60,396 bases of DNA from Steroidobacteraceae bacterium (GTDB lineage Bacteria; Pseudomonadota; Gammaproteobacteria; Steroidobacterales; Steroidobacteraceae), in contig DASSJN010000039.1 in the NCBI GenBank assembly GCA_035691185.1, forward strand, positions 1 to 60,396, written 5' to 3'. The notes beneath the pieces are model-generated. The model saw nothing but the letters and a program-made list of their open reading frames with translations. It did not search any database and was not told the origin of the DNA. Position numbers and translations under genes: made by a program. Of the stretch, positions 16,899 through 37,815 are shown piece by piece (position 1 is the first letter of the stretch; every line of letters begins with the position of its first letter).

Positions 16899-17017
16899 GT
16901 GGGCCTCGCGAGAAGGCCGGCATTGTAAAGGCGGAAAATTCGGAGTGTCCCTATTTTCGCGCGCAGTGCAGAATTGAATGTTGCAGAGCACAAAACCGAC
17001 GGATGCCGGAGAGGACC

Positions 17018-18805: not shown

Positions 18806-18822
18806 GCGGACGCGCAGCGGAC

Positions 18823-19398: not shown

Positions 19399-19401
19399 CT
19401 C

Positions 19402-20094
19402 ATGACCACCCACGCCGCGCCCTTCGCCGTCGCCTCCCCCTCCGTCGAGATCCAGGGCCAGACGGCACGCTTCCCGGTGCACCGGATCTACTGCGTGGGG
19501 CGCAATTACGCCGCGCACGTGCGCGAGATGGGGGCGAACCCCGAGCGTGAGGCGCCGTGCTTTTTCATGAAGCCGGCCGACGCGGTGGTGCCGAACGGCG
19601 CTGCCGTGCCGTACCCGCCGCGCACGACGAACCTGCACCACGAGATCGAACTCGTCGTCGCCATCGGCGTCGGCGGACGCAACATCGCGCCGGCGACCGC
19701 GCTCGAGCACGTCTTCGGTTATGCAGTCGGCAACGACCTGACGCGCCGCGACCTGCAGGCCGCCGCCAGGGGAGCGGGCCTGCCCTGGGACGTCGCGAAG
19801 GGCTTCGACCACTCGGCGCCGCTCTCGGCCATCCGTTCGGTCGGCGAGGGCGGCCACGTCGCGTCGGGCCGCATCTGGCTCGAGGTCAACGGTCAGCCGC
19901 GACAGGACGCCAACGTCGCCGAGATGATCTGGAGCGTGCCCGAAATCATCGCCGAACTCTCGACGCTCTACGAACTGCAACCGGGCGACCTGATCTTCAC
20001 CGGCACGCCGGCGGGGGTCGGACCGGTGCAGCGCGGCGACAGCATCGTCGGCGGCATCGACAGCCTCGAAACGCTGCGCACGACGATTGTGTGA
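19402..20094 (+). CDS. Fumarylacetoacetate hydrolase (FAH) family protein
   Basis: 230 aa. RIYCVGRNYAAHVREMG, HHEIELVVAIG, NDLTRRDLQ and GDLIFTGTPAGVG are FAH-fold motifs. Adjacent to maiA. Confidence 0.85.
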   Translation: MTTHAAPFAVASPSVEIQGQTARFPVHRIYCVGRNYAAHVREMGANPEREAPCFFMKPADAVVPNGAAVPYPPRTTNLHHEIELVVAIGVGGRNIAPATALEHVFGYAVGNDLTRRDLQAAARGAGLPWDVAKGFDHSAPLSAIRSVGEGGHVASGRIWLEVNGQPRQDANVAEMIWSVPEIIAELSTLYELQPGDLIFTGTPAGVGPVQRGDSIVGGIDSLETLRTTIV

Positions 20095-20097
20095 GAC

Positions 20098-20198
20098 GTG
20101 TCCAGTGTTTAGTGTCTAGTGTTCAGTCGGAGCGGCTGCCCGCGGGCCGACACCGGCGGCCCCTCCGACTATCCGCTGGACACTGAACACTGGACACT
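20098..20198. repeat. Heptamer-armed palindromic intergenic element, copy 3
   Basis: GTGTCCAGTGTTTAGTGTCTAGTGTTCAGTCGGAGC ... CCTCCGACTATCCGCTGGACACTGAACACTGGACACT. It starts 4 nt after the FAH stop and ends 3 nt before the maiA ATG. Confidence 0.9.
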
Positions 20199-20201
20199 CC
20201 C

Positions 20202-20870
20202 ATGTCCCTGACGCTCTACACCTACTGGCGCAGCTCGGCTGCCTACCGCGTGCGAATCGCGCTGAACCTCAAGGGGCTCGCGTACCAGGCCGTGCCCAAG
20301 CACCTGGTGCGTGACGGCGGCGAACAGAAGAAACCGGACTACCTGGCGCTGAATCCGCAGGGTCTCGTGCCGGCGCTGGCCGACGACGGGTTCGTCGTTC
20401 CGCAGTCGCTCGCAATCTGCGAGTACCTCGAGGAAATCCATCCCGAGCCGCGCCTGCTGCCCGGTTCCGCACGCGACCGCGCCATCGTGCGCGGCATGGC
20501 GCTCGCGATCGCGTGCGACACGCATCCGCTCAACAACGTGCCGATCGTCGGTTACCTGCGCCGCGAGTTCGGGGCGGACGATGCGGCCGTGAACCGCTGG
20601 ATGGCGCACTGGATACACCGCGGTTTCTCCGCGCTCGAGCGTTGGGTGGGCGCAGCCGGCGGCAGCCCCGTGCCCGCCGACGGCCAGCTCTACTGCTACG
20701 GCTCGCAGGTCACCCTCGCCGACGTCTGCGTCGTGCCTCAGATGTACAACGCACGCCGATTCCAGGTCGACGTGTCGGCGTACCCCCGGCTCGTGTCGAT
20801 CTGCCGGCACCTCGAAGCGCTGCCCGCGTTCGCGGCCGCCCGGCCGGAGGCGCAGCCGGACGCAGAGTGA
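20202..20870 (+). CDS. maiA: Maleylacetoacetate isomerase (GST zeta)
   Basis: MSLTLYTYWRSSAAYRVRIALNLKGL... is the canonical zeta-class GST N-terminus (SSAAYRVRIALN). Confidence 0.9.
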   Translation: MSLTLYTYWRSSAAYRVRIALNLKGLAYQAVPKHLVRDGGEQKKPDYLALNPQGLVPALADDGFVVPQSLAICEYLEEIHPEPRLLPGSARDRAIVRGMALAIACDTHPLNNVPIVGYLRREFGADDAAVNRWMAHWIHRGFSALERWVGAAGGSPVPADGQLYCYGSQVTLADVCVVPQMYNARRFQVDVSAYPRLVSICRHLEALPAFAAARPEAQPDAE

Positions 20871-20871
20871 G

Positions 20872-20972
20872 GAGTGTTCAGCGGACAGCGTCGAACGGAT
20901 GGTCGGAAGGCGGCGGCGCGCCGCGCTGCCTGGCGCTTCGGACTGGACACTGAACACCAACCGCTAGACACT
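20872..20972. repeat. Heptamer-armed palindromic intergenic element, copy 4 (degenerate left arm)
   Basis: GAGTGTTCAGCGGACAGCGTCGAACGGATGGTCGGAAGG ... CTTCGGACTGGACACTGAACACCAACCGCTAGACACT. It starts 2 nt after the maiA stop and ends 6 nt before the next ATG. Confidence 0.8.
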
Positions 20973-20978
20973 TCCCCC

Positions 20979-21257
20979 ATGGTCACCGCCGTCGTCCTGA
21001 TCAAGGCCGAAACCGACAAGGTGCCGGAACTCGCCCAGACCATGGCCGAGCTCGAGGGCGTGCGCGAGGTGTTCTCGGTGGCGGGTCAGTACGACCTCGT
21101 TGCGCTCGTGAAAGTCCGCGAGAACGAGGACCTCGCCCGGGTCATCAGCGAGAAGATGCGCAAGCTGCCAGGCATTACGAGTTCGGAGACGCTGATCTCC
21201 TTCAAGGTCTATTCGAAAAAGGACATCGAGGCGGCGTTCCAGCTCGGCCTCGACTGA
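20979..21257 (+). CDS. Stand-alone Lrp/AsnC ligand-binding (RAM) domain protein
   Basis: 92 aa. VVLIKAETDKVPELAQTMAELEGVREVFSVAGQYDLVALVKV... resembles an AsnC-type effector domain without an HTH. Confidence 0.6.
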   Translation: MVTAVVLIKAETDKVPELAQTMAELEGVREVFSVAGQYDLVALVKVRENEDLARVISEKMRKLPGITSSETLISFKVYSKKDIEAAFQLGLD

Positions 21258-21408
21258 CCGTCGAACGGCGCACCCGCCCCGGTCACTCTCGACAACCCGG
21301 CGGAGTCAGACCGGCCGGCTCCGAGCGAAAGCGCAGCGTGCGGCCGCGCCGTGCGACGAGTCGAGGCCTGCGCGAGGTGAGTCGCCGTCCAGATCCCTTG
21401 CCCAATTG

Positions 21409-21426
21409 AGAATGACCGTTCATTCT
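21409..21426. promoter_or_regulatory. Candidate TetR-type operator overlapping a TTGAC -35-like hexamer, upstream of the RND operon
   Basis: AGAATGACCGTTCATTCT is a 16/18 palindrome in an otherwise GC-rich leader, 62 nt upstream of the adaptor ATG. A TetR gene ends the operon. Confidence 0.35.
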
Positions 21427-21487
21427 TGACCCGTCCCGCTCGCCCGCGACCCGCGCGCAGCGTTCGTTCCAGGTCTCGAGGTTTGCC

Positions 21488-22660
21488 ATGACATCGCTTT
21501 CGCGCGCGAAGACGGCCGGCTTTTCCATCGTTCTGGCTGCCCTGGCTGCGCTGACGGCGGCCTGTGGAGATCAGCAGGACACGCCCGAGGGCGGGGCACC
21601 GGTGCCGGTCACCATCGTCACGCTCAGGTCGGAGAAGGTGACGCTCACGCGCGAGCTGCCCGGTCGTTCGACGGCGTACCTCGTGGCCGAGGTTCGACCG
21701 CAAGTGGACGGCATCGTCCTCAAGCGTCTGTTCACGGAGGGCGGCCTGGTGAAGCAGGGTCAGCCGCTGTACCAGATCGACGACGCCACGTACCGCGCGG
21801 ACCTCAACAGCGCCCGCGCCAACGTCGTGCGCGCACAGGCGACGCTCGAGACGGCGGACCTCGACGCTAAACGCAGCGCGCAGCTCGTCCGGGTCGATGC
21901 CGTTAGCCAGCAGGACGACGAAAATGCCGCCGCGGCGCTGCGCCACGCGCAGGCGGACCTCAAGGCGGCGCAGGCGGCGGCGGACCGTGCCGCGACCGTC
22001 CTCGGGTACGCACGGATCGTTGCGCCGATCAGCGGCCGCATCGGCAGGTCGTCGGTCACGCAGGGTGCGCTCGTGACCGCCAACCAGGCCGAACCGCTCG
22101 CCACCGTGCAGCAGCTCGATCCGATCTACGTCGACCTCACGCAGTCGAGCGCGGAATGGCTGCAGCTGCGCCGGGAACTGGCCTCCGGTCGCCTCGCGGG
22201 CGCGTCCGACCTGCCCGTGACCATCGTGCTCGAGGACGGCTCTCCGTACGAGCACACCGGCAAGCTCGCCTTTTCCGAGGTCAGCGTCGACCCCACCACG
22301 GGCAGCTTCGCGTTGCGCGTCGTCGTGCCGAACCCGGACCACGTGCTGCTCCCCGGCATGTACGTGCGGGCAGTCATCGGCCGGGGTGTGCGCGAAAACG
22401 GCGTGCTCGTGCCGCAGCAGGGCATCGCGCGCGATCCGAAGGGCGGCACCACGGCGATGATCGTCGGCGCGGACGAAAAGGTCGAAGTCCGCGAGGTCCG
22501 CGTGAGTCAGACCATCGGCGACAAGTGGCTCGTCGAAGAGGGTCTCGCCCCGGGCGACAGGGTGGTCGTCGAAGGCCTGCAGAAGATCAGGCCCGGCGCA
22601 CTGGTGCAGGCCACGGAGGCCGCGACGCCGGCCGCCACTCGAACCGCGGCGCAGAAGTAA
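21488..22660 (+). CDS. RND efflux periplasmic adaptor (MexA/AcrA family)
   Basis: Lipoprotein signal LTAACG, then RPQVDGIV, GQPLYQIDDATY, a coiled-coil hairpin and ITGRIG-like motifs. Confidence 0.9.
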   Translation: MTSLSRAKTAGFSIVLAALAALTAACGDQQDTPEGGAPVPVTIVTLRSEKVTLTRELPGRSTAYLVAEVRPQVDGIVLKRLFTEGGLVKQGQPLYQIDDATYRADLNSARANVVRAQATLETADLDAKRSAQLVRVDAVSQQDDENAAAALRHAQADLKAAQAAADRAATVLGYARIVAPISGRIGRSSVTQGALVTANQAEPLATVQQLDPIYVDLTQSSAEWLQLRRELASGRLAGASDLPVTIVLEDGSPYEHTGKLAFSEVSVDPTTGSFALRVVVPNPDHVLLPGMYVRAVIGRGVRENGVLVPQQGIARDPKGGTTAMIVGADEKVEVREVRVSQTIGDKWLVEEGLAPGDRVVVEGLQKIRPGALVQATEAATPAATRTAAQK

Positions 22661-22669
22661 GGCCCGCCC

Positions 22670-25600
22670 ATGGCACGTTTCTTCATCGACCGACCCATTT
22701 TCGCGTGGGTCATCGCGATCATCATCATGATCGCGGGCGGCCTCTCGATCACGCAGCTGCCCATCTCGATGTATCCGACGATCGCACCACCGGCCGTGAC
22801 GATCAGTGCCAGCTACCCGGGCGCGTCCGCCGAGGCCGTCGAGAACGCGGTTACCCAGATCATCGAGCAGAACATGAAAGGCCTCGACGGCCTGATCTAC
22901 ATGTCTGCGACGAGCCAGGCCTCGGGCCAGGCGCAGGTCTCGCTGACGTTCCAGTCCGGCACGAATCCCGACATCGCGCAGGTACAGGTGCAGAACAAGC
23001 TGCAGCTCGCGATGCCGCTGCTGCCGCAGGAAGTGCAGCGCCAGGGCGTCAGCGTGACCAAGTCGCGCACGGGCTTCCTGCTGATCATCGGCTTCGTGTC
23101 GAAGGACGGCAGCATGAAGCGCGAGGACCTTGCCGATTACGTCGGCGCCAACCTCCTCGACCCCCTGAGCCGCGTCGAAGGTGTCGGCACCGTGCAGCTC
23201 TTCGGCGCTCCGTATGCGATGCGCATCTGGCTCGACCCGCACAAGCTCGAGACCTATCGGCTGGCCGTGTCCGACATCACCGCCGCGGTGCGGGCGCAGA
23301 ACGCGCAGGTTACGGTGGGGCAGCTCGGCGGCACGCCGGCGGTGGACGGACAGCAGCTCAACGCCACCATCAGCTCCCAGTCCCGGCTGCAGACGCCCGA
23401 GCAGTTTCGCGACATCGTCGTACGCAGCAACCCGGACGGCTCGGCGCTGCGACTCGGGGAGGTCGCCCGCGTCGAACTCGGCGCCGAGAACTACAGCGTC
23501 ATCACGCGCTTCAACGGCCAGCCGGCCGTCGGCATGGCGATCTCGCTCGCGACCGGCGCCAACGCGCTCGCGACCTCGACCGCCGTGCGCGAACGGCTGG
23601 ACGAGTTGCGGCCGTTCTTCCCGGCCGGCCTCGCGACGGTCATTCCGTTCGACACGACGCCTTTCGTGCGCGCGGCCATCATCGAGGTCGTGAAGACGCT
23701 CGTCGAGGCGATCGTCCTGGTGTTCCTGGTCATTTACCTGTTCCTGCAGAACTTCCGGGCGACGCTGATCCCGACCATCGCGGTGCCGGTGGTGCTGCTC
23801 GGCACGTTCGGCGTGCTCGCGGCGCTCGGCTTCTCGATCAACGTGCTCACGATGTTCGCGATGGTGCTCGCGATCGGCCTGCTCGTGGACGATGCGATCG
23901 TCGTGGTCGAGAACGTGGAGCGCCTGATGCGGGAGGAGGGCCTCTCGCCGCTGGAGGCGACGCGCAAGTCGATGGACCAGATCACCGGCGCGCTGGTCGC
24001 CATCGGCCTCGTGCTCGCCGCAGTGTTCATCCCGATGGCGTTCCTGGCGGGCTCCGTCGGTGTGATCTACCGGCAGTTCTCCGCGACGATCGTCTCGGCG
24101 ATGGCGCTCTCGGTGCTGGTCGCGATCGTGTTGACGCCCGCGCTCTGCGCCACGCTGCTCGAGCCCGTCCGCAAGGGCGAGCAACACGAATCGCGCGGCT
24201 TCTTCCGCTGGTTCAACCGCAACTTCGATCGCGGCACGCGCAGCTACGAGGGTGCGGTGCGCACCGTGCTCGCCCGCACCGGTCGCTTCCTGCTGGTGTT
24301 CCTCGGGCTCGCGGCCGTCATGCTGTTCCTGTTCCTGCGGTTGCCGAGCGCATTCCTGCCCGACGAGGACCAGGGCTCCCTGATCTCGATGGTGTCCGCG
24401 CCCGTCGGGTCGACCCAGCAGCGAACGCTGCAGTCGATCGAGAAGGTCGAGCAGCACTTCCTCGAGAACGAACCCGCGATCAGGTCGATCTTCGCCATCG
24501 TCGGGTTCAGTTTCGCCGGCGGCGGCCAGAACGCGGGCATGGCGTTCGTCAACCTGAAGCCGTGGGACGAACGCGATTCGGCCGACCTGCACGTCAAGGC
24601 GGTCGCACGCCGTGCGATGGGCGCGCTCATGCAGATCAAGGACGCGATGGCCTTCGCGTTCGCCCCGCCGCCGGTGACCGAACTCGGCGTCGCCACGGGC
24701 TTCACGTTCTACCTGCAGGACAACGCCGGCCACGGCCATGCGGCGCTGGTCGCCGCGCGGAACCAGCTGCTCGGACTGGCGACGCAGAGCAAGCTGCTGA
24801 CGAACGTGCGCCCGAACGGCCAGGACGACACGCCGCAGTTCAAGCTGAACATCGACACCGCCAAGGCCGCGGCGCTCGGCGTCGAGATCGCGAACGTCAA
24901 CTCGACGCTGTCAGCGGCGTGGGGCGGCAGCTACATCGACGACTTCATCGACCGCGGGCGCGTCAAGCGCGTGTACGTGCAGGCCGACGCGCCGTACCGC
25001 ATGACGCCCGAGGACTTCCGCCTCTGGTCGGTGCGCAATGCCGAGGGCGGCATGGTGCCGGTGTCATCGTTCGCGACCTCGGAGTGGAGCTACGGCTCGC
25101 CGCGACTCGAGCGCTACAACGGCGTCTCGGCCATGGAAATCCAGGGCGAGGCGGCCGCGGGCGTCAGCACCGGCCAGGCCATGGCGGAGATCGAGGCGCT
25201 CATGCGGCAGCTGCCGCCCGGGTTCGGGATCGAGTGGAGCGGCGCCTCGTACCAGGAGCGGCAGGCGGGAGCGCAGACGCCGCTCCTCTACGCGCTGTCG
25301 TTCGCGATCGTCTTCCTCTGCCTCGCGGCGCTGTACGAGAGCTGGTCGATTCCGACGGCGGTGCTCATGGTCGCGCCGCTGGGCATCCTGGGCGCGACGC
25401 TCGGCAGCACGCTGCTCGGCATGCAGCGCGACGTCTACTTCCAGGTCGCGATGCTGACGACGCTGGGCCTCACGAGCAAGAACGCCATCCTGATCATCGA
25501 GTTCGCCAAGGCGAACTACGAGAAGGGGATGGACCTCGTCGAAGCGGCGATGCAGGCCGCGAAGATCCGGCTGCGGCCGATCCTGATGACCTCACTCGCG

Positions 25601-25831
25601 TTCGGGTTCGGCGTGTTGCCGCTCGCGATCGCGACCGGCGCCGGGTCGGGTGCGCAGCGTGCGATCGGGACCGGCGTCCTGGGCGGCATGATCGTCGGCA
25701 CGAGCCTCGGCTTGATCTTCATCCCGCTGTTCTTCGTCGTCGTCGAGCGCTGGCTCGTGCGCAAGAAGCCGCATGCACCGCAAGCGTCTGCCGGCGAACC
25801 GGTGCCGGCCGGAGGTGCCGCCCATGAGTAA
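22670..25831 (+). CDS. RND multidrug efflux permease (AcrB/MexB family)
   Basis: 1053 aa. [20 protein letters not shown], 12-TM topology, and [19 protein letters not shown]. Confidence 0.95.
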
Positions 25832-27254
25832 GTCCATCGCCACTGCCGTCACGCTGGCGCTCGTCTGCGCCACGAGCGCCTGTGGCGTGCTCGAGCCGCG
25901 GCTGCCGGACGCCCAGCCGTCGATCCCGGCGCAGTGGCCATTGCCGCCGATGACGGCCACGGCGCCCGTCGCGCCGGCCGCCGCTGCAGGGGAGGCCGAG
26001 GCCGCGGCGGCCGACATCGGCTGGCGCGACTTTTTCGTCGACCCCCGCCTCGAGGACCTGATCGACCGAGCGCTCAGGAACAATCGGGACCTGCGCGTGG
26101 CCGTGCTCAACGTGGAGCGTGCCCGGCAGTCCTACCGCATCCAGCGCGCCGATCGCGTCCCCTCCGTCGGCGCCGCCGGCACGATGGTCCGCCAGGGCGG
26201 TGACGGCCAGCGCACGACCGAAACCTATGCGGCCGACCTCGCCGTCACGGCCTTCGAACTCGACCTCTTCGGTCGCGTGCGCAACCTGAGCGAGACAGCG
26301 CTGCAGCGATATTTCGCCCAGGAGGAAGCGCGTCGCAGCGCGCAGCTGAGCCTGGTCGCCGAGGTCGCAAGCGTCTACCTGACGCTCGCGGCGGACCAGG
26401 AGCAATTGGAACTCGCGCGCGAGACGCTGCGCACGTGGGACGACAACTTCGCAATCACGCAGAAGCGACACGAATTCGGCGCGGTCTCCGCGCTGGACGT
26501 GCACCAGGCGCGCACGCAGGTGGAAGCCGCGCGCGCCGACCTCGCACGCTACGCAGGCCAGATCGCGCAGGACGTGAACGCGCTGAACCTGCTCGTCGGC
26601 GGGACGGTGGACCCGGGCGTGCTGCCGACCGGATTCGACCCCGACGTCACGGGCCTCGACGCGCTGCCGGTGGGGCTGCCGTCGGACGTGTTGCTGCGAC
26701 GCCCGGACGTGCTCGAGGCGGAGCGCCAGCTGCGGGGCGCCAATGCGAACATCGGCGCGGCGCGAGCCGCGTTCTTTCCGTCCATCACGCTGACCGGCGC
26801 GGTCGGCTCGGCCAGCGACGAGTTGTCGGGCCTGTTGGGCAGCGGCACGAATACCTGGAGCTTCGTCCCGCGCGTCAACGTGCCGATCTTCGAGGGTGGC
26901 CGGCTGCGCGCGAATCTAGGTGCGGCGCGCGCCGACCGCGACATCGCGCTCGCGCAGTACGAAGGCACGATCCAGCGCGGCTTCCGCGAGGTGGCCGACG
27001 CCCTCGCGCTGACCTCGACGCTCGCCTCGCAGCGGCAGGCGCTCGAGCAGCTGGTCGAGGCAGCCACGAAGGCCGAGGAGTTGTCGATCGCCCGCTACGA
27101 AGCGGGCCGCGACAGCTACCTGATCCGGCTCGAGGCGCAGCGGACGCTGTACGTCTCGCAGCAGGCACTGATCACGACACGGCTGGCCGAGCAGACGAAC
27201 CGCGTGACGCTGTACCAGGTGCTCGGCGGCGGCTGGCGCGAGGCGACACGATGA
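25824..27254 (+). CDS. Outer-membrane efflux lipoprotein (OprM/NodT family)
   Basis: Lipobox ATSACG, then [27 protein letters not shown] and FFPSITLTG. Overlaps the permease stop. Confidence 0.9.
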
Positions 27255-27856
27255 ACGACGTTCCGGCGGTGGCCGGCAGCCGTGCCGACGCGCAGCGCGA
27301 CCGGATCCTCTGTGCGGCGCTCGGGTGCTTCATCGAGCATGGCTTCCACGCGGCGAGCATGGCGAGCATCGCCGAGGCCGCGCAGATGAGCGCGGGCCTG
27401 ATCTACCGCTATTTCGAAAGCAAGAATGCGATCGTGCTAGCGATCGTCCAGCGCCAGCTGGACGAAAAGCGGTCGCTCATCCGGCAGCTGCAGTCGTCCG
27501 TGCAGATCGTCGACGGCCTGGTCGACGCCTTCGAACAGTGGTGCCGCCACGACCCCGCGATCATGAGCGTCGCACTGCTGCTCGAGATGAGCGCAGAGGC
27601 CACTCGCAATCCCGAGATCGCGCAGGCCCTGCGCGCTTCGGACGAGGCGACGCGCGCGACGTTCGAGGCGTGGTTGCGCCGGCCCCGCGAGCAGGGCGGC
27701 GCCGGCATGTCCGCCGGGCAGGCGCGCTCGCGCGCGCTCGGGATGCGTTTCGTCGTCGATGGCCTCGCGCTGCGCGCCGCGCGCGAGCCGGGGCTCGACA
27801 GGGCCGAACTCCGCACCGCGGTCGAGAAGCTGATCCGCACCCTGCTGGAGCCGTGA
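27251..27856 (+). CDS. TetR/AcrR family transcriptional regulator
   Basis: N-terminal HTH RDRILCAALGCFIEHGFHAASMASIAEAAQMSAGLIYRYFESK. ATGA overlap with the OMF gene. Confidence 0.9.
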   Translation: MNDVPAVAGSRADAQRDRILCAALGCFIEHGFHAASMASIAEAAQMSAGLIYRYFESKNAIVLAIVQRQLDEKRSLIRQLQSSVQIVDGLVDAFEQWCRHDPAIMSVALLLEMSAEATRNPEIAQALRASDEATRATFEAWLRRPREQGGAGMSAGQARSRALGMRFVVDGLALRAAREPGLDRAELRTAVEKLIRTLLEP

Positions 27857-27871
27857 GCGGCGACCGCTACC

Positions 27872-29230
27872 TCAAAGCGCGCCGCCCAGCCGTCGCAGCG
27901 CGTCCGGCTGGAAGTCGGTGATCCGCGCCTTCGCGTCGAACTGGATCGGTTCCTTGACCTCGCTGTCGAGGCCGCCGACGAGGTAGCCGCCGCTGTTCAG
28001 GTCGTGGTAGATGCCGAAGCGATAGAACGGCACCCGTGCGTCGTAGGCGTGCACGAGGCCGTGCAGAGACGCGCGCCACAGCTGGCCACGCGTGTCGTAC
28101 ACGTCTTCCGCGAGTACCGACCAGCTGTCCTCGTCGAGGTAGAACGTGCGCTTGCCGTAGATGTGCCGCTGCCCGGTCCGTAGCGTGCCCTCGACCACCC
28201 AGACGCGATGCAGTTCGTACCGCACGTACTCCGGATCGATCGACTTCGGCTTGATCACGTCCTTGTACCGGAGCGTCTTGTCCGATAGCCGGTACGAGTT
28301 GTAGGGAACGTAGACTTCGCGCTTGCCGAGCAGCTTCCAATCGTAGCGGTCGGGTGCGCCGTTATAGCCGTCCACCTGGTCGGTTGTCAGCATGCCTTCC
28401 GACCCGTCGTTGATGCCGTCGTACGCCAGGTCCGGGGCGCGCCGAACGCGCCGTGCACCCGAGTTGTAGATCCACGCCGAGCGTTGCTCGGCCACCTGGT
28501 CGACGGGTTCGTGCACGAGGAAGATCGTGCCACGCAGCGTGGCCGGCTCGGTGAAATAGCCGAGCGCATAGAACAGCCGATTGGGCTCGGCACCCTCGAC
28601 GTTCTGCGCGTAGATGCGTTGTGCCCGGAAGCCGATCTTGAAGTAGTCGCCGCTGGGCCGTACCGGGAACGAGTGCCCGGTGCGCACGATGCCGCCGCCG
28701 AGGTAACGCACGAGGTGGTTCCAGATCGCCTCGAGACCGTTCTGCGGGATCGGAAACGGCGTCGTCGAGCCGCCGAGGTCCTTGAGCCCGAAGCCTTGCA
28801 GCGAGACCTTGCCGGCTCGCGCGGCCACCTTGTCGGTGACGGCCTCGGGATACCCCACCGTGCGCCGCGTCGGATAAACGTTCATGCGGAAGTTCTGCGG
28901 AAATTTCTGCAGCAGCGCGAGCTGTCCGCGGGTCAGCTTCGCTTCGTATTGCGCTGCATTGGTCCCGGTGATCGTGAACAAGCGCTGGTCGCCCGGGAAC
29001 GGATCGACATAACCCTGCTGGGGCGTCCACCCGGGGGGCGGCTCCCGGAGACCGCCGTCCCAGGCGGGGATCGTGCCGTCCGCAGTGCCCGCGCGCTCGG
29101 CGCCGACCGGCGTGAGGTCCCGGCCGAGGCGCGAGTAGTCGGCCTGCGCCAGCGCTTCGCCCGAGGCGGCGACGAGCGCGAGCGTCAGGAACAGAGCCCG
29201 AAGCCCCGTGGTGGCGGACAGTGGCGTCAT
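27872..29230 (-). CDS. DUF1329 family protein (outer-membrane lipoprotein-sorting-like)
   Basis: 452 aa, secreted. LTPVGAERAGTADGTIPAWDGG and the later W/Y-rich beta-rich sequence are characteristic of DUF1329. No DUF1302 partner is in the window. Confidence 0.65.
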   Translation of the reverse strand: MTPLSATTGLRALFLTLALVAASGEALAQADYSRLGRDLTPVGAERAGTADGTIPAWDGGLREPPPGWTPQQGYVDPFPGDQRLFTITGTNAAQYEAKLTRGQLALLQKFPQNFRMNVYPTRRTVGYPEAVTDKVAARAGKVSLQGFGLKDLGGSTTPFPIPQNGLEAIWNHLVRYLGGGIVRTGHSFPVRPSGDYFKIGFRAQRIYAQNVEGAEPNRLFYALGYFTEPATLRGTIFLVHEPVDQVAEQRSAWIYNSGARRVRRAPDLAYDGINDGSEGMLTTDQVDGYNGAPDRYDWKLLGKREVYVPYNSYRLSDKTLRYKDVIKPKSIDPEYVRYELHRVWVVEGTLRTGQRHIYGKRTFYLDEDSWSVLAEDVYDTRGQLWRASLHGLVHAYDARVPFYRFGIYHDLNSGGYLVGGLDSEVKEPIQFDAKARITDFQPDALRRLGGAL

Positions 29231-31543: not shown

Positions 31544-32542
31544 TCACCCCTTGAGCAGTCGATAGAGCACGGCCATCTGCACGACCATGCGATTGGCCGC
31601 CTCTGCGATCACGCGGCTGCGCGGCCCGTCCAGAACCTCGTCGGCGACAGCGACGTTGCGGCGTACCGGCAGGCAATGCATGAAGTGGCAACCGGGGCGC
31701 GCGCGTGCGAACCAGTCCTCGCGCACGCACCAGTCGACCAGAGGCTGTCGCACGCGCGCCTCGGCCTCCGCGTCGCCGTAGTGCAGCGGCGAGCCCCACT
31801 CCTTGGCATAGACGACGTGCGCACCGGACAGCGCGGCCGTGCGATCGCTCGTCTCGGTCAGCGCGCCGCCCGAGGCGGCCGCGGCCGCGCGCGCCTTCTG
31901 CATGATGGCCTCCGGCAAGGCATAGCCGTCGGGGCGCAGCACGACGACGTCCATGCCGCGGTGCGCGGCCATGTGCACCGTGGCGGCGGGCACCGCGAGG
32001 GGCAGTGCTCGCGGGTGATGGACCCAGCTCAGCACGAACTTGCCCGTCCGCGGCACGCCCAGGTCGTCCATGGTCTTCCAGTCGGCCAGGGCCTGGCACG
32101 GGTGGTTGACCGCCGATTCCAGGTTGACGAGCGGCCTGTCGCACAGCGCGGCCATTTGCAGGAACTGCTTTTCGGCGAGGTCGGCCGCGAGGTCCCTGCC
32201 TTCGGCGAACGAGCGGATGCCGAGCGCGTCGCAGTAGGAGGCCAGCACCGGGATCGCCTCGCGCACGTGCTCCGCGGCCGCGCCGTTCATGACGGCGCCG
32301 TCACGCGTCTCGACGTTCCAGGTGCCGGAACCGGGCGTGACGACGAACGCGCTGCCGCCGAGCCGCATCATGCCGGCCTGGAATGAGGACAGCGTGCGCA
32401 GCGAGGGGTTCAGGAACAGCAGCCCGAGGATCCTGCCCGCGAGCGCCTGCGGCTCGGGGCGCTCCTTGAGCCGCTGCGCGAGCGCGAGCAGGTCGACGAT
32501 GTCGTCGCGTGGGAAGTCGGCGAGGTCGAGGAAGCGGCGCAT
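31544..32542 (-). CDS. argF': N-acyl-L-ornithine carbamoyltransferase (AOTCase-like ArgF')
   Basis: FLNPSLRTLSSFQ replaces the OTCase STRTR motif. TWNVETRDGAVMNG..EH, NHPCQ and HCLPVRRNV parallel the Xanthomonas N-acetylornithine transcarbamylase (comparison from memory). Confidence 0.8.
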   Translation of the reverse strand: MRRFLDLADFPRDDIVDLLALAQRLKERPEPQALAGRILGLLFLNPSLRTLSSFQAGMMRLGGSAFVVTPGSGTWNVETRDGAVMNGAAAEHVREAIPVLASYCDALGIRSFAEGRDLAADLAEKQFLQMAALCDRPLVNLESAVNHPCQALADWKTMDDLGVPRTGKFVLSWVHHPRALPLAVPAATVHMAAHRGMDVVVLRPDGYALPEAIMQKARAAAAASGGALTETSDRTAALSGAHVVYAKEWGSPLHYGDAEAEARVRQPLVDWCVREDWFARARPGCHFMHCLPVRRNVAVADEVLDGPRSRVIAEAANRMVVQMAVLYRLLKG

Positions 32543-32602: not shown

Positions 32603-33760
32603 CTAGGCCGGAAGGGAGGCGAGAGCGGCGCGCAGCGACTCGACGTGATCGGCCTCCAGCACGAACGGCGCGAGGACGCGCACGACGTTAGGATCCGCAC
32701 TGGTGCCGGTCAGGATGTCGTGCTGCTCGAGCAGTTCACGCTGCACGTCCCTGGCGGGTCGGCGCGTGCGCAGCCCGAGCAGGAACCCGGCGCCCTGGGT
32801 GCCGACGACGGGCCCGACGACGCACGTCCCGCGGATCTGCTGCGAGAGCCTGCGCACGTTGGCGAGCAGGCCTTCCGTCTCGATGACGTCCACCACCGTC
32901 TCGATCATCGCGCAGGCCATCGGGCCGCCGCCGAACGTCGTGCCCAGGTCGTCGGTCCTCAGGTGCTGCGCGACGTGGTTGGCCATCAGCAGCGCGGCGC
33001 ACGGGAAGCCTGCGCCGAGCGCCTTCGCGGTCGTGAGCATGTCCGGTGCGACGCCGTGCATGGTCGCGGCGAACGGATAACCGGTGCGACCCATGCCGCA
33101 CTGGACCTCGTCGAAGATCAGCAGCGTCCGGGCGTCGCTGCAGCGCGAGCGCAGCGCGCCGAGGAATTCGGCGCCGAGGTCCACGGCCCCGCCGACGCCC
33201 TGCACCGGCTCGACGATCGCGGCGGCCGTGTCGCTCCCGACCGCGCGCTCGACGGCATCGATGTCGTCGCGCGCGATGAACTCGACGTCGAAGGGCGCCT
33301 GCGGGAAACCGTACCACTTCCTCATGGCGCCCCAGGTCACGGCGCCCGCCGCCGCGGTGCGGCCGTGGAAGCTGCCTTCGACCGCGACGACCTTGCGTCG
33401 ACCGGTGATCCTCAGCGCGAGCTTGAGCGCATTCTCGTTCGCCTCGGCACCGGTGCTGATGAAGAACGCCGTGTTGAGCCCGAGACCCGCGAACCGCGTC
33501 AATCGCGTCGCGGCGCGTGCACGCACGTCGAGCGGCACGGCATTGCTCTGGAAAATCAGCGAGCGCGCCTGCTCCCCGAGCGCGGCGAGCAGCCGCGGAT
33601 GCGAATAGCCCAGCGCCGCGACGGCGTGACCGCCGTAGAGGTCGAGCACCTTGCGCCCGTCGCGTGTGTGCAGGTAGACGCCCTCGCCGCCGACGACGTC
33701 GAGGGCCCACTGGGCATAGACCGGGGCGAGGTGGTCGGGGGGAGGAGTCCAGGCAACCAT
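32603..33760 (-). CDS. argD: Acetylornithine aminotransferase (class-III PLP aminotransferase)
   Basis: 385 aa. SGAEANENALKLA, LIFDEVQCGMGRTG and TTAKALGAGFP (PLP Lys). Confidence 0.85.
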   Translation of the reverse strand: MVAWTPPPDHLAPVYAQWALDVVGGEGVYLHTRDGRKVLDLYGGHAVAALGYSHPRLLAALGEQARSLIFQSNAVPLDVRARAATRLTRFAGLGLNTAFFISTGAEANENALKLALRITGRRKVVAVEGSFHGRTAAAGAVTWGAMRKWYGFPQAPFDVEFIARDDIDAVERAVGSDTAAAIVEPVQGVGGAVDLGAEFLGALRSRCSDARTLLIFDEVQCGMGRTGYPFAATMHGVAPDMLTTAKALGAGFPCAALLMANHVAQHLRTDDLGTTFGGGPMACAMIETVVDVIETEGLLANVRRLSQQIRGTCVVGPVVGTQGAGFLLGLRTRRPARDVQRELLEQHDILTGTSADPNVVRVLAPFVLEADHVESLRAALASLPA

Positions 33761-33887: not shown

Positions 33888-34949
33888 TCAGGTCCAGCCC
33901 GGCGCGGAGGCCATCAGGCCCGCCGTCTCCTCGTGGCCGAACATGCGGTTCATCCACTGCACGGCGCCGCCGGCGGCACCCTTGGTCAGGTTGTCGATGA
34001 CGCACATCACCGCGATCGACCGGCCGTTGCTGACGCCCGAGAGCTCCGCGAAGTTGCTCGCGACGACGTCCTTGAGCCGCGGCATCTCCCCGCTCACCCG
34101 CACGAACGGCGACTGTTCGTAGAACTCACGCAGCGCGTGGACCAGCTCGTGGCTGTTCACGCTTTCCTGCGCGACTGCCTGCACCGTCACGTGGATCCCG
34201 CGTGCGAACGGACCCGAGTGCGGCACGAAGTTGAATTCCGCGGCGACGTCCGACGCGGCCTGGGCCAGTGCGGCGACTTCCGGAGTGTGCCGGTGCGCGA
34301 GGGCGTTGTAAGAATAGAGATCGCTGTGCCGTTGCGGGTGATGGGTGCCTGCGGTGGGACTGCGGCCCGAGCCCGTGCTGCCCGTCACGCCCGAGACGAA
34401 CAGGCGCGGCTCGACGAGACCGAGCGACAGCAGCGGCACGCTCGCGAGCAGCACCGCCGTGGCGAAGCATCCCGGGTGCGCGACGTGCGGCGTCGACAAC
34501 GCGTTCAGGTGCTCGGGCACGGCGCACGTGAACTCGCCGATCCGGGACGGCGCGCCGTGCTCGTGCTTGTAGACGGCCTCGTAGGCTTCCGCGCTCGAAT
34601 AGCGGAAGTCGGCCGAGATGTCGACCACGCGCGGCTGCGTGCCGGCCTGCTCGCCGGCGACGAGCAGGCGATCGATCAGCGCCGCGGACACGCCGTGCGG
34701 CGCGGCGGAAAACACTGCCGTGGTCGGGTTGGCCGCGACGTATTCGAGCACTTCGTCGTGGTCCGCGAACCGCAGGTGCGGCAGCACCGGCTGCAGGTGC
34801 CTGAAGAACTGGGCGATCGGTTCGTCGGGCTGGCTGTCCGAGGCCACCGCGGCCAGGTCGAAATAGGGGTGTGCGGCGAGCAGTCGCAGCAGTTCACCTG
34901 CGACGTAGCCGGTGCCACCGAGAACGATGGCCGGCGTGCGGGCGTTCAC
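33888..34949 (-). CDS. argC: N-acetyl-gamma-glutamyl-phosphate reductase
   Basis: 353 aa. GGTGYVAGELLRLL and the active-site region AHPGCFATA. The GTG start overlaps the upstream stop (GTGA). Confidence 0.85.
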   Translation of the reverse strand: MNARTPAIVLGGTGYVAGELLRLLAAHPYFDLAAVASDSQPDEPIAQFFRHLQPVLPHLRFADHDEVLEYVAANPTTAVFSAAPHGVSAALIDRLLVAGEQAGTQPRVVDISADFRYSSAEAYEAVYKHEHGAPSRIGEFTCAVPEHLNALSTPHVAHPGCFATAVLLASVPLLSLGLVEPRLFVSGVTGSTGSGRSPTAGTHHPQRHSDLYSYNALAHRHTPEVAALAQAASDVAAEFNFVPHSGPFARGIHVTVQAVAQESVNSHELVHALREFYEQSPFVRVSGEMPRLKDVVASNFAELSGVSNGRSIAVMCVIDNLTKGAAGGAVQWMNRMFGHEETAGLMASAPGWT

Positions 34950-36034
34950 TGGTTCACCGCCGTGGCCGGCTGGGCGGACGCGATGCCGAGCGAATCGATG
35001 ATGTGGTCGCCGAGCGCGGCGCCCGAGGTCATCGCGTTGATCGCGCGCACGTTCATCTGCCGCTCGATGATGTCCACCCCGACCGCGTTGTCCGTCGACG
35101 GACCGGTCACCGCGCACGGCTCGATGCCGAAGCGTTCGCGCAACAGCTTGACGCCTCCCCAGGCCGCCACCGGGTCGTTGGCGGACAGGATCACGGCGCT
35201 GAGCGATCGGGCGATGTCGGGTGCGGAGAGGATCGCCTCGACGCCGTACGCGCCGAGGATGCCGTCGCCGAGTTCGAATACGACGACGTCCGGACGGCCC
35301 TGCGTCATTTCGGTCAGCATCGTCCGGGTGAGCGCGGGGCCCGATGTCGCCGTCGTCGTCACGATGCCGAAATCCGTGAAGATCTGGCTGCGGCGCGCAC
35401 CGGCATCCTCCATCGCGAGGATGTCGCGACGCAACGAGACACCCGTGGCCTTGAACGCGTGCACCGAGAGCCCGCGATGGCGCATGCGGGCGACGATCGC
35501 GCACGCGGCGGCCGTCTTGCCCGCCTCCATGCAGGTGCCCGCCAGCGCGACGACGGGCACGGCGTGCGTGTCGAGCGCCGACGCGGGATCGAGCTGCTTG
35601 TAACCGACGCGGGCCGGTACGCCGATCCGTTCGCCGAGGAACGGGAACTGCAGCACGCAGCCGAGCACTCGCGCGTCGAACGGCTTGCCCTTGTCCGGGT
35701 TGACCGAATCGCAGATCCCGAGCACGCCGCCGATGTTGAGCACCTGGAGGATGTCGCCGGCCTGCACCGTCTCCGGGATGTGGCCCGAGTAGCCGAACAG
35801 CGCCTGGCGATGACCCAGGGCGCCGACGACGACGTCGCCGCGCGAGACCTTGGCCATGCGTCCACTCGTGAGTTCGAGCGTGTTGTAGGTCGACTTGTTG
35901 TTGAGCACCTCGACGACCAGCACGACGCCTTCCTCGCAGGGAATGTCGGTGGTGGCGATGCGCAGCTCGCGCCCGAGCCCGCAGGCCTGCGCGATCGAAG
36001 CGATCTTGTCGACGACGACGGTCTTCTGTTGCAT
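34946..36034 (-). CDS. Uncharacterised protein with N-terminal beta-rich domain and BioD/CobQ/DUF1611-like GTxxxxGKT P-loop domain
   Basis: 362-aa ORF with high GC3 and AGGGGA 8 nt upstream of the ATG. Motif VVALAGTCMEAGKTAAACAIV. Lies between argG and argC, and its stop overlaps the argC start. Confidence 0.7.
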   Translation of the reverse strand: MQQKTVVVDKIASIAQACGLGRELRIATTDIPCEEGVVLVVEVLNNKSTYNTLELTSGRMAKVSRGDVVVGALGHRQALFGYSGHIPETVQAGDILQVLNIGGVLGICDSVNPDKGKPFDARVLGCVLQFPFLGERIGVPARVGYKQLDPASALDTHAVPVVALAGTCMEAGKTAAACAIVARMRHRGLSVHAFKATGVSLRRDILAMEDAGARRSQIFTDFGIVTTTATSGPALTRTMLTEMTQGRPDVVVFELGDGILGAYGVEAILSAPDIARSLSAVILSANDPVAAWGGVKLLRERFGIEPCAVTGPSTDNAVGVDIIERQMNVRAINAMTSGAALGDHIIDSLGIASAQPATAVNQ

Positions 36035-36070
36035 CGAATGTTCCCCTGCGACGTCCCGCGACCGGCGAGC

Positions 36071-37291
36071 TCAGTCGCGGCCGGCGCGCGTGTAGAAAAT
36101 GCCCGGCAGGGCCAGCATCTTGGAGAACCCGTGCGCGTCCTCCGGCGTCCATTCGCCGGCCGACTCGCCGTAGGCGCCCTTCGACGCCTTCATGAGCGAG
36201 TACCGCGACGACGTGCCTTCGACGAAGACCGTCCCCGGCCGGAACAGCAGGCGCACCTCGCCCGTGACGCGCTTCTGCGTCGAGACGAAGAAGGCCTCCA
36301 TGTCGCGGCAGACCGGATCGAGGTGCTGGCCTTCGTGCACGAGGTCGCCGTACGGGCCGGCGAGGACGTCCTTGGTGCGCTGCTGGCGCGCCGACAGCAC
36401 GAGCTTCTCGAGTTCGCGATGCGCGGTGAGCAGCACTTCCGCCGCCGGCGCCTCGAACGCGACGCGGCCCTTGAAGCCGATGATCGTGTCACCGAGGTGG
36501 ATGCCCCGGCCGACACCGAACTTCGCGCCGATCACCTCGACTTGTTCGATCAGCGTGACCGGGTCGAGCGTCCTGCCGTCGAGCGAGCAGGGGACCCCTG
36601 CCTCGAAGCCGACCGTGTGGCGCTCCGTCGGTTGCGGGTGGGTGAAGGCGTCGCGCGTGAGGACCCACGCCTCGTCCGGTATGCAGGTCTCGGAGACCAG
36701 CGTCTCCTTGCCTCCGATCGTGACGCCCCAGAGCCCGCGATTGACCGAGTAGGCCGCGCCGAAGGGCGGGACCGGCAGGTTGCGTGCCTCGAGGTACGCA
36801 AGCTGTTCCGGCCGCTTGAACGCCTCGTCGCGCACGGGTGCGAGGATCTCGAGTTCCGGAGCGAGCGTGCGCAGCGCGACCTCGAACCGCACCTGGTCAT
36901 TGCCCGCCGCGGTCGAGCCGTGCGCGGTGACGTCGGTGCCCAGTTCACGGGCGAACTGCGCGACCGTCTGGGCCTGCAGGACGCGCTCGGCGCCCACGCA
37001 GAGCGGGTAGAGATTCCCGCGACGAACGTTGCCCATGATCAGGTACTTGAGCACCTGCTCGAAGTAGGCGGGCCGCGCGTCGACCAGGTGATGGGCCACG
37101 GCGCCGAGCGCCTTCGACCGTTGCTCCAGGGTCGCCGCGGCATCGGCGTCGATACCGCCGGTGTTGACCGTGAGCGTGACGATGGGGCGGCCATAGGTCT
37201 CCGCGAGCCACGGGACGCAGAACGAAGTGTCGAGTCCGCCTGAAAAAGCGAGCAGGATGGGCTTCTTGTCGCCCCGGGCAGTCGTGGTCAT
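36071..37291 (-). CDS. argG: Argininosuccinate synthase
   Basis: ILLAFSGGLDTS (PP-loop), then AHGSTAAGNDQVRFE and GRGIHLGDTIIG. Confidence 0.9.
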   Translation of the reverse strand: MTTTARGDKKPILLAFSGGLDTSFCVPWLAETYGRPIVTLTVNTGGIDADAAATLEQRSKALGAVAHHLVDARPAYFEQVLKYLIMGNVRRGNLYPLCVGAERVLQAQTVAQFARELGTDVTAHGSTAAGNDQVRFEVALRTLAPELEILAPVRDEAFKRPEQLAYLEARNLPVPPFGAAYSVNRGLWGVTIGGKETLVSETCIPDEAWVLTRDAFTHPQPTERHTVGFEAGVPCSLDGRTLDPVTLIEQVEVIGAKFGVGRGIHLGDTIIGFKGRVAFEAPAAEVLLTAHRELEKLVLSARQQRTKDVLAGPYGDLVHEGQHLDPVCRDMEAFFVSTQKRVTGEVRLLFRPGTVFVEGTSSRYSLMKASKGAYGESAGEWTPEDAHGFSKMLALPGIFYTRAGRD

Positions 37292-37301
37292 CGAGGGAAT
37301 C

Positions 37302-37814
37302 TCAGCGTCCGAAGGTGGTACGGAGGTGCTCGTGCAGCCGACGCTGCGCGCGCGCGCTCTCCGTGGCGATGAAAATCGTGTCGTCGCCGGCGATGGTGCC
37401 GACGATTTCGGGCCAGCGCGCCTTGTCGAGGGCGATGGCGACGCTCTGTGCGGTGCCCGCCGACGTGCGCAGCACCGTGAGCGTGGGCCCCGCGGCGCGG
37501 TAACCCTTCACGAACGCGCGCACGGTCTCGAAGTGGCTCGGCGTGAGCGCGTCCTCGACCGCGGGCAGCAGGTAACGATCCGCGCCCTTGACGACGCCGA
37601 GTTCGCGCAGGTCCCGGCTCACGCTCGACTGCGTCGCGTCGAGCCCCTCGCGCGCGAGCAGGGCAACCAGTTCGGCCTGACGCGCGACCGCGCCGTGCCG
37701 CAGGATGCGGACGATCGCTTCGCGGCGCAGGCTCTGGGCGTTCAAGTCGGTGGCCAAGGCGACGTCGTCCGGTCCGGATGAATAAAAGACGACCAAATGT
37801 GCATAATTATGCAC
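37302..37814 (-). CDS. argR: Arginine repressor ArgR (true start probably downstream, about 37757)
   Basis: Winged-helix region RREAIVRILRHGAVARQAELVALLAREGLDATQSSVSRDLRELGVV. C-terminal oligomerisation/arginine-binding region GTIAGDDTIFI. The first GTG of the ORF lies inside the ARG-box palindrome. Confidence 0.8.
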   Translation of the reverse strand: MHNYAHLVVFYSSGPDDVALATDLNAQSLRREAIVRILRHGAVARQAELVALLAREGLDATQSSVSRDLRELGVVKGADRYLLPAVEDALTPSHFETVRAFVKGYRAAGPTLTVLRTSAGTAQSVAIALDKARWPEIVGTIAGDDTIFIATESARAQRRLHEHLRTTFGR

Positions 37815-37815
37815 A
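37778..37815. promoter_or_regulatory. Tandem ARG boxes (ArgR operator)
   Basis: ATGAATAAAAGACGACCA is followed after 2 nt by the perfect 18-bp palindrome TGTGCATAATTATGCACA. Compare the E. coli ARG box wnTGAATwwwwATTCAnw. This is an AT-rich patch between divergent genes. Confidence 0.6.

Follow-up and report, generated by a model that had tools for sequence, protein, structure and literature searches.

The N-acylation of L-glutamate, the first committed step of arginine biosynthesis, is carried out in the closest described systems by GNAT synthases such as ArgA, the bifunctional synthase-kinase of Xanthomonas, S-NAGS/ArgH(A) and BT3761, the N-succinylglutamate synthase of Bacteroides. These are found in the context of arginine (arg) operons, and in the case of BT3761 the operon is that of a succinyl-type pathway. 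A route to N-acylglutamate without a GNAT, likewise encoded in arg operons, is provided by ArgJ, an ornithine acetyltransferase that is bifunctional in some species and is an autoprocessing enzyme of the Ntn-hydrolase type. Here, we consider a gene, hereafter X, that lies inside the arg operon of a Steroidobacteraceae bacterium (GenBank assembly GCA_035691185.1, contig DASSJN010000039.1); the window that we analyzed is the stretch of 60,396 nucleotides from position 1 of this contig. The product of X has no GNAT domain and a fold unrelated to that of the GNAT synthases, and ArgJ is unrelated to the P-loop folds among which X is placed below. On balance, we consider it likely that X catalyzes the first committed step of the pathway, replacing the absent GNAT-type ArgA.

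The most immediate precedent comes from Steroidobacter denitrificans DSM 18526, which grows in minimal medium, yet has no recognizable ArgA or ArgE in its complete genome (GapMind 2026; bioRxiv 10.1101/2024.10.14.618325, version of 2 July 2026). The sole hypothetical protein in its arg cluster, ACG33_RS14135 (UniProt A0A127FCT3), was proposed to be the ArgA and was predicted, more specifically, to be an N-succinyl-L-glutamate synthase (GapMind 2026, Appendix 2). The same source reports that homologs of this protein are 'virtually always' within arg operons, that they never co-occur with classical ArgA homologs, and that the ArgF' proteins beside them bear a succinyl-type residue (GapMind 2026). 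It also describes a weak Foldseek match of ACG33_RS14135 (E-value 1.4e-7, root-mean-square deviation of 5.6 Å) to PDB 7XRJ, a member of the DUF1611 family reported there to be a D-glutamate acetyltransferase (GapMind 2026).

Judged by alignment, X is the ortholog of ACG33_RS14135 (locus tag ACG33_14140 in the 3.47 Mb sequence CP011971.1), with which it shares 76% identity over 354 amino acids without a gap. Both organisms have the operon argR-argG-X-argC-argD-argF'-argB-argH with the succinyl-type signature in ArgF', and share the flanking genes for TANGO2, TamA, TamB and a NUDIX protein on one side and for a 4HBT thioesterase and PolA on the other. They belong to different genus-level lineages of the Steroidobacteraceae, and whereas X overlaps argC in the window, the gene calls of X and argC in S. 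denitrificans are 134 nt apart. Since X is the ortholog of the S. denitrificans protein in the same operon, our identification of it is a rediscovery of a published prediction: GapMind 2026 had already put forward, on a predictive basis, the ArgA hypothesis for this gene family together with its linkage to arg operons, and the prediction is incorporated in GapMind itself. The S. denitrificans ortholog carries the label DUF1611 in UniRef, and no paper linking DUF1611 to arginine turned up in a literature search.

X is a conserved gene of the arginine operon

X is a real and highly conserved gene. An exhaustive search recovered homologs that fall into 1444 clusters at 50% identity, of which 211 reach E<=1e-30, and 6397 of the 8000 candidates that were scored proved homologous to X at E<=1e-3. 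The size of this family, together with an AlphaFold2 model of high confidence (predicted local distance difference test score, pLDDT, 95.7; predicted template modeling score, pTM, 0.91; 48-sequence alignment), argues against a chance open reading frame (ORF). The frame has a G+C content at third codon positions (GC3) of 0.91, and the long ORFs on the plus strand opposite X are an ordinary by-product of a G+C content of 69%. The ORF itself, the gap of 36 nt between the argG stop and the start of X, the AGGGGA Shine-Dalgarno sequence and the GTGA overlap with argC, all of which had been described in the initial annotation, were re-read in the sequence. Translation of argC from position 34949 yields a full ArgC by the TIGR01850 model, consistent with the GTGA overlap. 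By these signals, X is translationally coupled to argC and lies inside an operon with a conserved predicted ArgR operator.

The neighboring genes were identified with Pfam and NCBIfam profiles, which bear out the gene order given above, on the minus strand, and the kinase-only ArgB, both as initially annotated. The stated absence of argA, argJ and argE likewise holds for the 60-kb window of this genome, to which it applies. A Pfam scan of all 49 of its high-GC3 ORFs found no GNAT, ArgJ or M20 domain, and tblastn searches with M20 and GNAT queries taken from other X operons matched neither the window nor any of the first 80 related loci.

Genomic contexts of the X family

Of 80 related genome loci, 51 retain the eight-gene order, and all of these carry the label of Steroidobacteraceae or of related or unclassified proteobacteria. 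Among them are the loci of the cultured Peristeroidobacter agariperforans and Steroidobacter flavus, and the closest homologs of X are labeled Steroidobacteraceae. The source labels of the family extend to Gemmatimonadota, Myxococcota, Blastocatellia, Pyrinomonadaceae, Thermoanaerobaculia, Planctomycetota and Woeseia, partly through metagenome-assembled genomes. In a set of 80 diverse metagenome loci, argG lies upstream of X in 45/50 and argC downstream in 42/48. The linkage to argG and argC about which the initial annotation had asked is thus seen in diverse loci, and homologs from several phyla have argC directly downstream. Homologs with 37-45% identity to X hold the same position in the operon, and in six of the eight gene-called loci of distant homologs X overlaps argC by 4 nt. 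The contig of one homolog (P0148) is so short that it reveals no gene context.

Several arrangements recur around this common theme. One operon (L082) has the order argG-X-argC-argD-argF'-argB-M20-GNAT-argH and another (L084) argG-X-argC-argF'-argB-M20, while in L083, L089 and the locus of the homolog P0288 the order is argR-X-argC-argD-argF'-argB, so that X comes immediately behind argR. A Gemmatimonadota operon (L087, 9487-16916) reads argR-X-argC-argD-argB-argG, with argH detected after argG by tblastn; argF' is not in this operon, and an Amidohydro_1 gene lies directly upstream of argR.

An M20 gene of the ArgE/DapE family follows argB in 18 of the 24 diverse loci that reach at least 1.5 kb past argB. 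This bears directly on the suggestion, made in the initial annotation, that X might instead perform the final deacylation as an N-acylcitrulline deacylase replacing ArgE. Such a role would be in keeping with the absence of ArgE from the window and its reported absence in S. denitrificans, and also with the location of X between argG and argC, which we take to be the slot of argE in Xanthomonas clusters. However, the presence of the M20 gene in the same operon argues that X is not the deacylase. Further, several lineages place X in the early pathway block argR-X-argC-argD-argF'-argB, the hydrolysis of an amide needs no nucleoside triphosphate (NTP)-binding site, and we know of no hydrolase in the fold class of X. 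We therefore regard this role as extremely improbable.

The M20 genes also weigh on the idea that X is an ArgJ-like transacylase, which would move the succinyl group from N-succinylcitrulline to glutamate and thereby close the ArgA and ArgE gaps together. In its favor, both steps are reported missing in the complete S. denitrificans genome while one gene of the operon is unassigned, and no M20 gene is present in the window or in the flanks (<=10 kb per side) of the 80 related genome loci. On the other hand, X operons usually carry a separate deacylase, which sets them apart from the ArgJ route and is what a linear pathway would lead one to expect. In addition, the invariant phosphoryl-transfer site of X described below would be pointless in an energy-neutral transfer, recycling of this kind would have to be started by a further enzyme, and no acyl-enzyme chemistry is known to us for this fold. 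Hence, we hold a transacylase to be very unlikely.

GNAT genes, in contrast to M20 genes, are nearly absent from these operons. Among about 170 X loci, L082 alone has one (14209-15761 region), encoding a short NAGS (N-acetylglutamate synthase)-like protein that overlaps argH and whose best NCBIfam matches are PRK07757, PRK07922 and, in its GNAT portion, the model of the ArgH-NAGS fusion. With regard to the anti-occurrence of X and argA that had been raised in the initial annotation, L082 is thus the one exception among these loci, and it is the chief piece of context evidence against X as the sole synthase. With that exception, the rarity of GNATs in X operons fits a replacement of a GNAT by X. 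A hidden GNAT in the argC-argD gap of another locus (L136, 12173-15694) was ruled out, as the gap holds an HNH endonuclease gene and ORFs without a Pfam match. Insertions of 2.5-3.5 kb between argC and argD are seen in L136, L146 and L166, and that in L136 is probably a mobile insertion. Apart from the arg operons, a full-length homolog of about 30% identity (P0226; L086, 8373-9416) stands beside fragments of major facilitator superfamily (MFS) transporter genes, with no arg genes near, and may represent a paralogous subfamily with a different substrate.

A further line of evidence comes from a domain fusion. In P0218 (626 amino acids as called), X is followed by an amino-acid-kinase domain that scores 115 bits with Pfam, 127 bits with the argB model TIGR00761 (cut-off 151) and 95-105 bits with ArgA models. 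The frame runs about 40 codons upstream of the called start, which is too far downstream, to a Met that restores the whole N-terminus of X. In the kinase-like domain, the K-x-G-G motif reads K-I-A-D, suggesting that it may be a non-catalytic, ArgA-like regulatory domain. The architecture parallels the combination of a kinase-like and a catalytic domain in ArgA and, since the kinase fold accompanies the synthase domain both in ArgA and in the bifunctional synthase-kinases, the analogy supports a role of X at the first step, albeit from a single lineage: P0218, whose gene is found on four contigs (L090, 10001-11881; L091; L092; L093), where it stands alone and divergent from an arginase gene, is the only fusion of X with an amino-acid-kinase domain in the database. 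An apparent fusion of X with ArgC (P0176, 687 amino acids) was rejected as a frameshifted assembly artefact, with long out-of-frame stretches of low complexity and a partial ArgC match of 57 residues.

X combines a beta domain with a dethiobiotin-synthetase-like P-loop domain

In the AlphaFold2 model, X is a protein of two domains, namely an N-terminal beta domain and a C-terminal P-loop domain resembling dethiobiotin synthetase (BioD). The beta-rich N-terminal half noted at the outset thus corresponds to a predicted all-beta domain, in which S13, G36, R76, G84, P87, G103, G106 and G125 are invariant. When modeled separately and compared with the PDB by Foldseek, this domain had no match (best E-value 1.1, template modeling (TM) score <=0.30). 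The three motifs that had drawn attention to the C-terminal half, AGTCMEAGKT, FKATG and VVFELGDGILG, are all found in X and are conserved throughout its family, and an alignment of 48 diverse homologs shows G172, K173, T174, K195, G198, E254 and G256 to be invariant; of these, K173, T174, K195 and E254 are invariant in a 32-sequence alignment too.

Structure and profile comparisons agree in placing this domain near BioD. In a Foldseek search of the PDB with the X model, BioD 3of5 was the top match (E-value 2.4e-6), followed by HypB and the signal recognition particle (SRP)/FtsY GTPases, with UreG and CTP synthase also found. The top matches, BioD 3of5, 1dae and 1dts, have target-normalized TM scores of 0.56-0.58, whereas the query-normalized scores of all the proteins named here, and of the DUF1611 structure 2obn discussed below, are 0.31-0.40. 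When the PDB sequences were searched in full with a profile of the family, the best match was likewise a BioD, that of Mycobacterium tuberculosis (3fgn, E-value 3.4e-4). Finally, a profile-profile alignment of the family with Escherichia coli BioD (hhalign; E-value 2e-4, probability 46%, identity about 15%) pairs GTCMxxGKT with GTDTEVGKT, K195 with K37 and E254 with E115. The assignment of X to the GTxxxxGKT variant of the SIMIBI P-loop, as in BioD, CobQ and Pta, is therefore well founded, with the BioD motifs matching the invariant K173/T174, K195 and E254. Unlike X, BioD lacks the 150-residue beta domain and consists of one domain of about 225 amino acids; it is encoded in biotin operons and closes a ureido ring.

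The affiliation with DUF1611 implied in the initial annotation, in contrast, did not stand. DUF1611 proteins (PF07755 with PF17396; for example, 7XRJ and 2OBN) share with X the BioD-like SIMIBI P-loop class and the GTxxxxGKT loop, but possess a Rossmann-like DUF1611_N domain at the N-terminus, whereas the N-terminal domain of X is all-beta and without a match in the PDB. The single Pfam match of X is a sub-threshold one to PF07755 (17.4 bits against a cut-off of 25) that spans 43 residues (156-198). X matches neither DUF1611_N (PF17396) nor ArgJ in Pfam, neither the GNAT (Acetyltransf) nor the M20 domain in Pfam or NCBIfam, and no NCBIfam model at all. Among 48 members of the family, PF07755 is matched at E<=0.01 in 10, and weak matches are made to CbiA in 19 and to AAA_26 in four; for some members PF07755 matches are on record. 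Because X lacks the DUF1611 N-domain and falls below the Pfam threshold, it is, by these sequence comparisons, outside DUF1611. The DUF1611 structure 2obn ranked 21st in the Foldseek search (E-value 6e-5, TM score 0.37-0.39), behind BioD, HypB and the SRP GTPases; 7XRJ was not among the 50 matches listed, and the family profile found no DUF1611 entry among the PDB sequences. Two further searches of PDB sequences gave chance matches, one to EF-1beta with X alone and others, none to a DUF1611 structure, with a member for which a PF07755 match is recorded (P0359).

These results bear on the analogy with DgcN, the DUF1611 enzyme on which the initial annotation had based its functional suggestion. 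DgcN, too, acylates the amino group of glutamate, as is proposed for X, but it acts on D-glutamate in catabolism, whereas X would use L-glutamate in biosynthesis. As both the profile and the Foldseek searches place BioD at least as near to the P-loop domain of X as DUF1611, the analogy is a weak argument.

The same structural matches raise the question of whether X is catalytic at all. The G3E metallochaperones HypB and UreG and the SRP GTPases reach Foldseek scores equal to those of BioD, and X could accordingly be an accessory NTPase acting in assembly, as a scaffold or in metal delivery for ArgC or ArgG, or else a regulator. The translational coupling of X to argC, and in many cases to argG as well, suggests that the proteins are made in stoichiometric amounts, and the operon with a GNAT synthase candidate of its own (L082) is also compatible with this. 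Nevertheless, the motifs of X are the K-x-T-G and E-x-G-x-G of the BioD type and not the G-motifs of the G3E or SRP GTPases, and the conserved N-terminal domain with its invariant Arg resembles a substrate-binding module. Moreover, the fusion to an amino-acid-kinase domain suits a catalytic partner better, and the ArgA gap in a prototroph would be left unexplained. Such an accessory function thus appears improbable.

The pathway is probably of the succinyl type

The ArgF' protein encoded in the window has as its best matches in the PDB the N-acetylornithine transcarbamylase (AOTCase) of Xanthomonas campestris, and the very best of them is the E92A mutant (3l02). In the 102 argF' genes adjoining X homologs, the residue equivalent to position 92 of AOTCase is A in 71, V in 21, T in seven, S in two and Q in one, and is never E. 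Genome loci and looked-up loci have A in 64 and T, S and V in one each, and 35 metagenome loci have V in 20, A in seven, T in six and S and Q in one each. By mutagenesis, replacing this residue with A, P, S or V is cited as shifting the specificity of AOTCase to N-succinylornithine (Shi et al. 2007, cited in bioRxiv 10.1101/2024.10.14.618325). Hence, the predicted specificity of the window ArgF' is for N-succinylornithine and, because it has Ala instead of Glu at the specificity position, the pathway of this operon is probably of the succinyl and not the acetyl type. The initial description of an acetylornithine-transcarbamylase-type pathway should be revised in this respect.

X as a candidate N-acylglutamate synthase

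A synthase role for X is favored because there is an ArgA gap in a prototroph, S. denitrificans, whose arg cluster has a sole hypothetical gene. It draws further support from the conserved operon position of X, the M20 genes that speak against a deacylase role, the scarcity of GNATs around it, the kinase fusion, the succinyl-type ArgF' and the ARG box described below, as well as from its fold class, which holds DUF1611 and enzymes, such as BioD, that create an amide or ureido linkage at an amine. The initial annotation had arrived at a non-GNAT N-acetylglutamate synthase. An N-acylglutamate synthase is indeed the best-supported function and matches the independent prediction for the 76%-identical ortholog, but succinyl is a likelier acyl group than acetyl, and the product of X is probably N-succinyl-L-glutamate, the substrate of ArgB.

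We propose that the P-loop domain of X would bind the acyl donor and that the N-terminal domain, with its invariant R76, S13 and E54, would help to bind glutamate. The product would then proceed via ArgB, ArgC, ArgD and ArgF' to N-succinylcitrulline, which would be desuccinylated by an enzyme encoded outside the window before the action of ArgG and ArgH; we suggest that this might be DapE or a different M20 enzyme whose gene lies elsewhere. As for the donor, all N-acylglutamate synthases characterized to our knowledge use acyl-CoA or acetylornithine, and DgcN is said to use acetyl-CoA, a finding ascribed to Yu and colleagues in 2023. On these grounds, and by analogy with DgcN, succinyl-CoA would be the favored donor of X, and a CoA-dependent transferase is the version of the synthase role in which we place the greater part of our confidence, as a tentative proposal.

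The alternative within the synthase role is that succinate and ATP are used instead, with X as an ATP-dependent succinate:L-glutamate ligase in which a succinyl phosphate formed on the P-loop would be attacked by the alpha-amine of glutamate. The BioD-like fold class makes amide and ureido bonds via acyl-phosphates, and its members dethiobiotin synthetase and CobB/CobQ activate a carbamate or carboxylate. BioD is the top PDB match of X by both profile and Foldseek, and the phosphoryl-transfer residues of BioD, K15, T16, K37 and E115, align with K173, T174, K195 and E254, invariant in X. However, a ligase would depart from the donors of the characterized synthases named above, and no motif for recognition of the nucleotide base could be identified in X. 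Further, the only DUF1611 enzyme to which a function has been assigned is described as an acetyltransferase (bioRxiv 10.1101/2024.10.14.618325), and if DgcN has the same P-loop residues their conservation in X would not discriminate between the two chemistries. We consider the ligase an unlikely form of the synthase, though one to be taken seriously in view of the invariant BioD-type residues and of BioD, not DUF1611, being the nearest solved relative. Less likely is a variant in which X also recycles the succinyl group from N-succinylcitrulline.

Several observations weigh against the assignment of X as a synthase, and in part against its CoA-dependent form. First, the preprint itself terms the assignment 'predicted' (bioRxiv 10.1101/2024.10.14.618325). 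Second, the link to DgcN is weak and unspecific: the TM score of about 0.38 for 2obn, at rank 21, is no better than those of BioD, HypB and the SRP GTPases, sequence profiles find BioD and no DUF1611 structure, and the N-terminal domains of X and DUF1611 are unrelated. Third, the invariance of K173, T174, K195 and E254 points to phosphoryl transfer, judging from their BioD equivalents, which would not obviously be needed by a plain acyl-CoA transferase. Fourth, since L082 encodes, besides X, the short NAGS-like GNAT translationally coupled to argH, X is not always the sole candidate synthase of its operon. Finally, the argument from one gap and one gene is not airtight, because an ArgE gap is also present in Steroidobacter.

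Regulation of the operon and further features of the window

A perfect 18-bp palindrome resembling an ARG box, TGTGCATAATTATGCACA, is located in the divergent region between argR and the NUDIX gene (Table 1). In a search with the E. coli ARG-box consensus, it was the only match in the window at <=3 mismatches, and none of 100 shuffled sequences gave a match. The exact palindrome TGTGCATWWWWATGCACA is found in one of 174 loci, and the conserved element is the relaxed core TGCAT(W4)ATGCA, which, with one mismatch allowed, is present upstream of argR in all 69 of the Steroidobacteraceae loci with enough sequence. Given this conserved box upstream of argR, X is predicted to be repressed by arginine along with the whole operon. 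As there is overlap between the palindrome and the GTG that is listed first for argR (37814), the true start of argR probably lies downstream of that codon.

Feedback control may also be exerted at the protein level. When ArgB is read from its first in-frame ATG (MIGHK...), about 27 residues precede the Pfam AA_kinase match, and an N-terminal extension is typical of the arginine-inhibited hexameric acetylglutamate kinases. By analogy, such control could act on ArgB, and not on X alone.

Among the other products of the operon, ArgD has acetylornithine transaminase models as its top NCBIfam matches, every one of them below its cut-off. In ArgH, the ASL_C2 domain is matched across just 25 residues; the protein is equally short in the operons of S. 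denitrificans (401 amino acids) and L082 (404 amino acids), while that of L083 has 473 amino acids with ASL_C2 present. Beyond argH, about 12 kb (16422-29230) separate the operon from the 4HBT thioesterase gene in the window, whereas in S. denitrificans (L174, 16980-20503) this gene and polA come directly after argH. The intervening stretch encodes a DUF1329 protein, an RND efflux system (HlyD, AcrB and OEP), an AsnC regulator, a glutathione S-transferase (GST), an FAA hydrolase, a chorismate lyase and an acyl-CoA dehydrogenase.

Table 1. Positions in the window of X, its predicted domains and motifs, the other arg genes and the predicted operator.
Feature	Position	Strand	Basis or remark
X coding sequence	34946..36034	-	362 aa, ATG start; ortholog of S. 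denitrificans ACG33_14140
Shine-Dalgarno sequence AGGGGA	36042..36047	-	7 nt before the ATG of X; read from the sequence
GTGA overlap of X stop and argC start	34946..34949	-	TGA stop of X, 34948..34946; GTG start of argC, 34949..34947
N-terminal all-beta domain of X, about residues 1-150	35585..36034	-	AlphaFold2, pLDDT 93 for residues 1-152
C-terminal SIMIBI, dethiobiotin-synthetase-like P-loop domain of X, about residues 156-350	34985..35569	-	Foldseek and profile
Walker A motif, G166-T-C-M-E-A-G-K173-T174	35513..35539	-	Invariant or almost so in the family; aligns with BioD GTDTEVGKT, residues 8-16
K195-A-T-G198 motif	35441..35452	-	Equivalent of BioD K37 (KPVASG); profile and hhalign
E254-L-G-D-G258 motif	35261..35275	-	Equivalent of BioD E115 (VEGAGG); hhalign onto BioD 115-120
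Codon of ArgF' Ala90, position of X. campestris AOTCase Glu92 (acyl specificity)	32273..32275	-	Alignment to wild-type and E92A PDB chains
argR	37302..37814	-	Pfam Arg_repressor and Arg_repressor_C; domain match starts at residue 27
argG, argininosuccinate synthase	36071..37291	-	TIGR00032, 285 bits, above cut-off
argC	33888..34949	-	TIGR01850, 281 bits, above cut-off
argD, N-acylornithine aminotransferase	32603..33760	-	Aminotran_3, 264 bits
argF', N-acylornithine carbamoyltransferase	31544..32542	-	NF003384, 352 bits (cut-off 288)
argB, N-acylglutamate kinase, 308 aa	30612..31538	-	AA_kinase the sole domain, no GNAT; TIGR00761, 206 bits, above cut-off
argH, short argininosuccinate lyase, 396 aa	29291..30481	-	TIGR00838, 316 bits, model positions 12-388 of 455
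ARG-box-like perfect 18-bp palindrome TGTGCATAATTATGCACA	37798..37815	.	Predicted ArgR operator of the arg operon

Implications for arginine biosynthesis

Were X to prove a ligase, it would be the first N-acylglutamate synthase to work without a CoA thioester and would add a new class of enzyme to those that open the arginine pathway, with a previously unseen beta domain binding its substrates. This would also account for the succinylated intermediates of the lineages that bear X. More generally, if the assignment of X as an N-acylglutamate synthase is correct, the entry step of arginine biosynthesis would be performed in this lineage by a protein unrelated to either the GNAT enzymes or ArgJ. 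It would thereby close a gap, the 'missing argA', that recurs when pathways are reconstructed automatically and when auxotrophy is predicted for abundant bacteria of soils and sediments.

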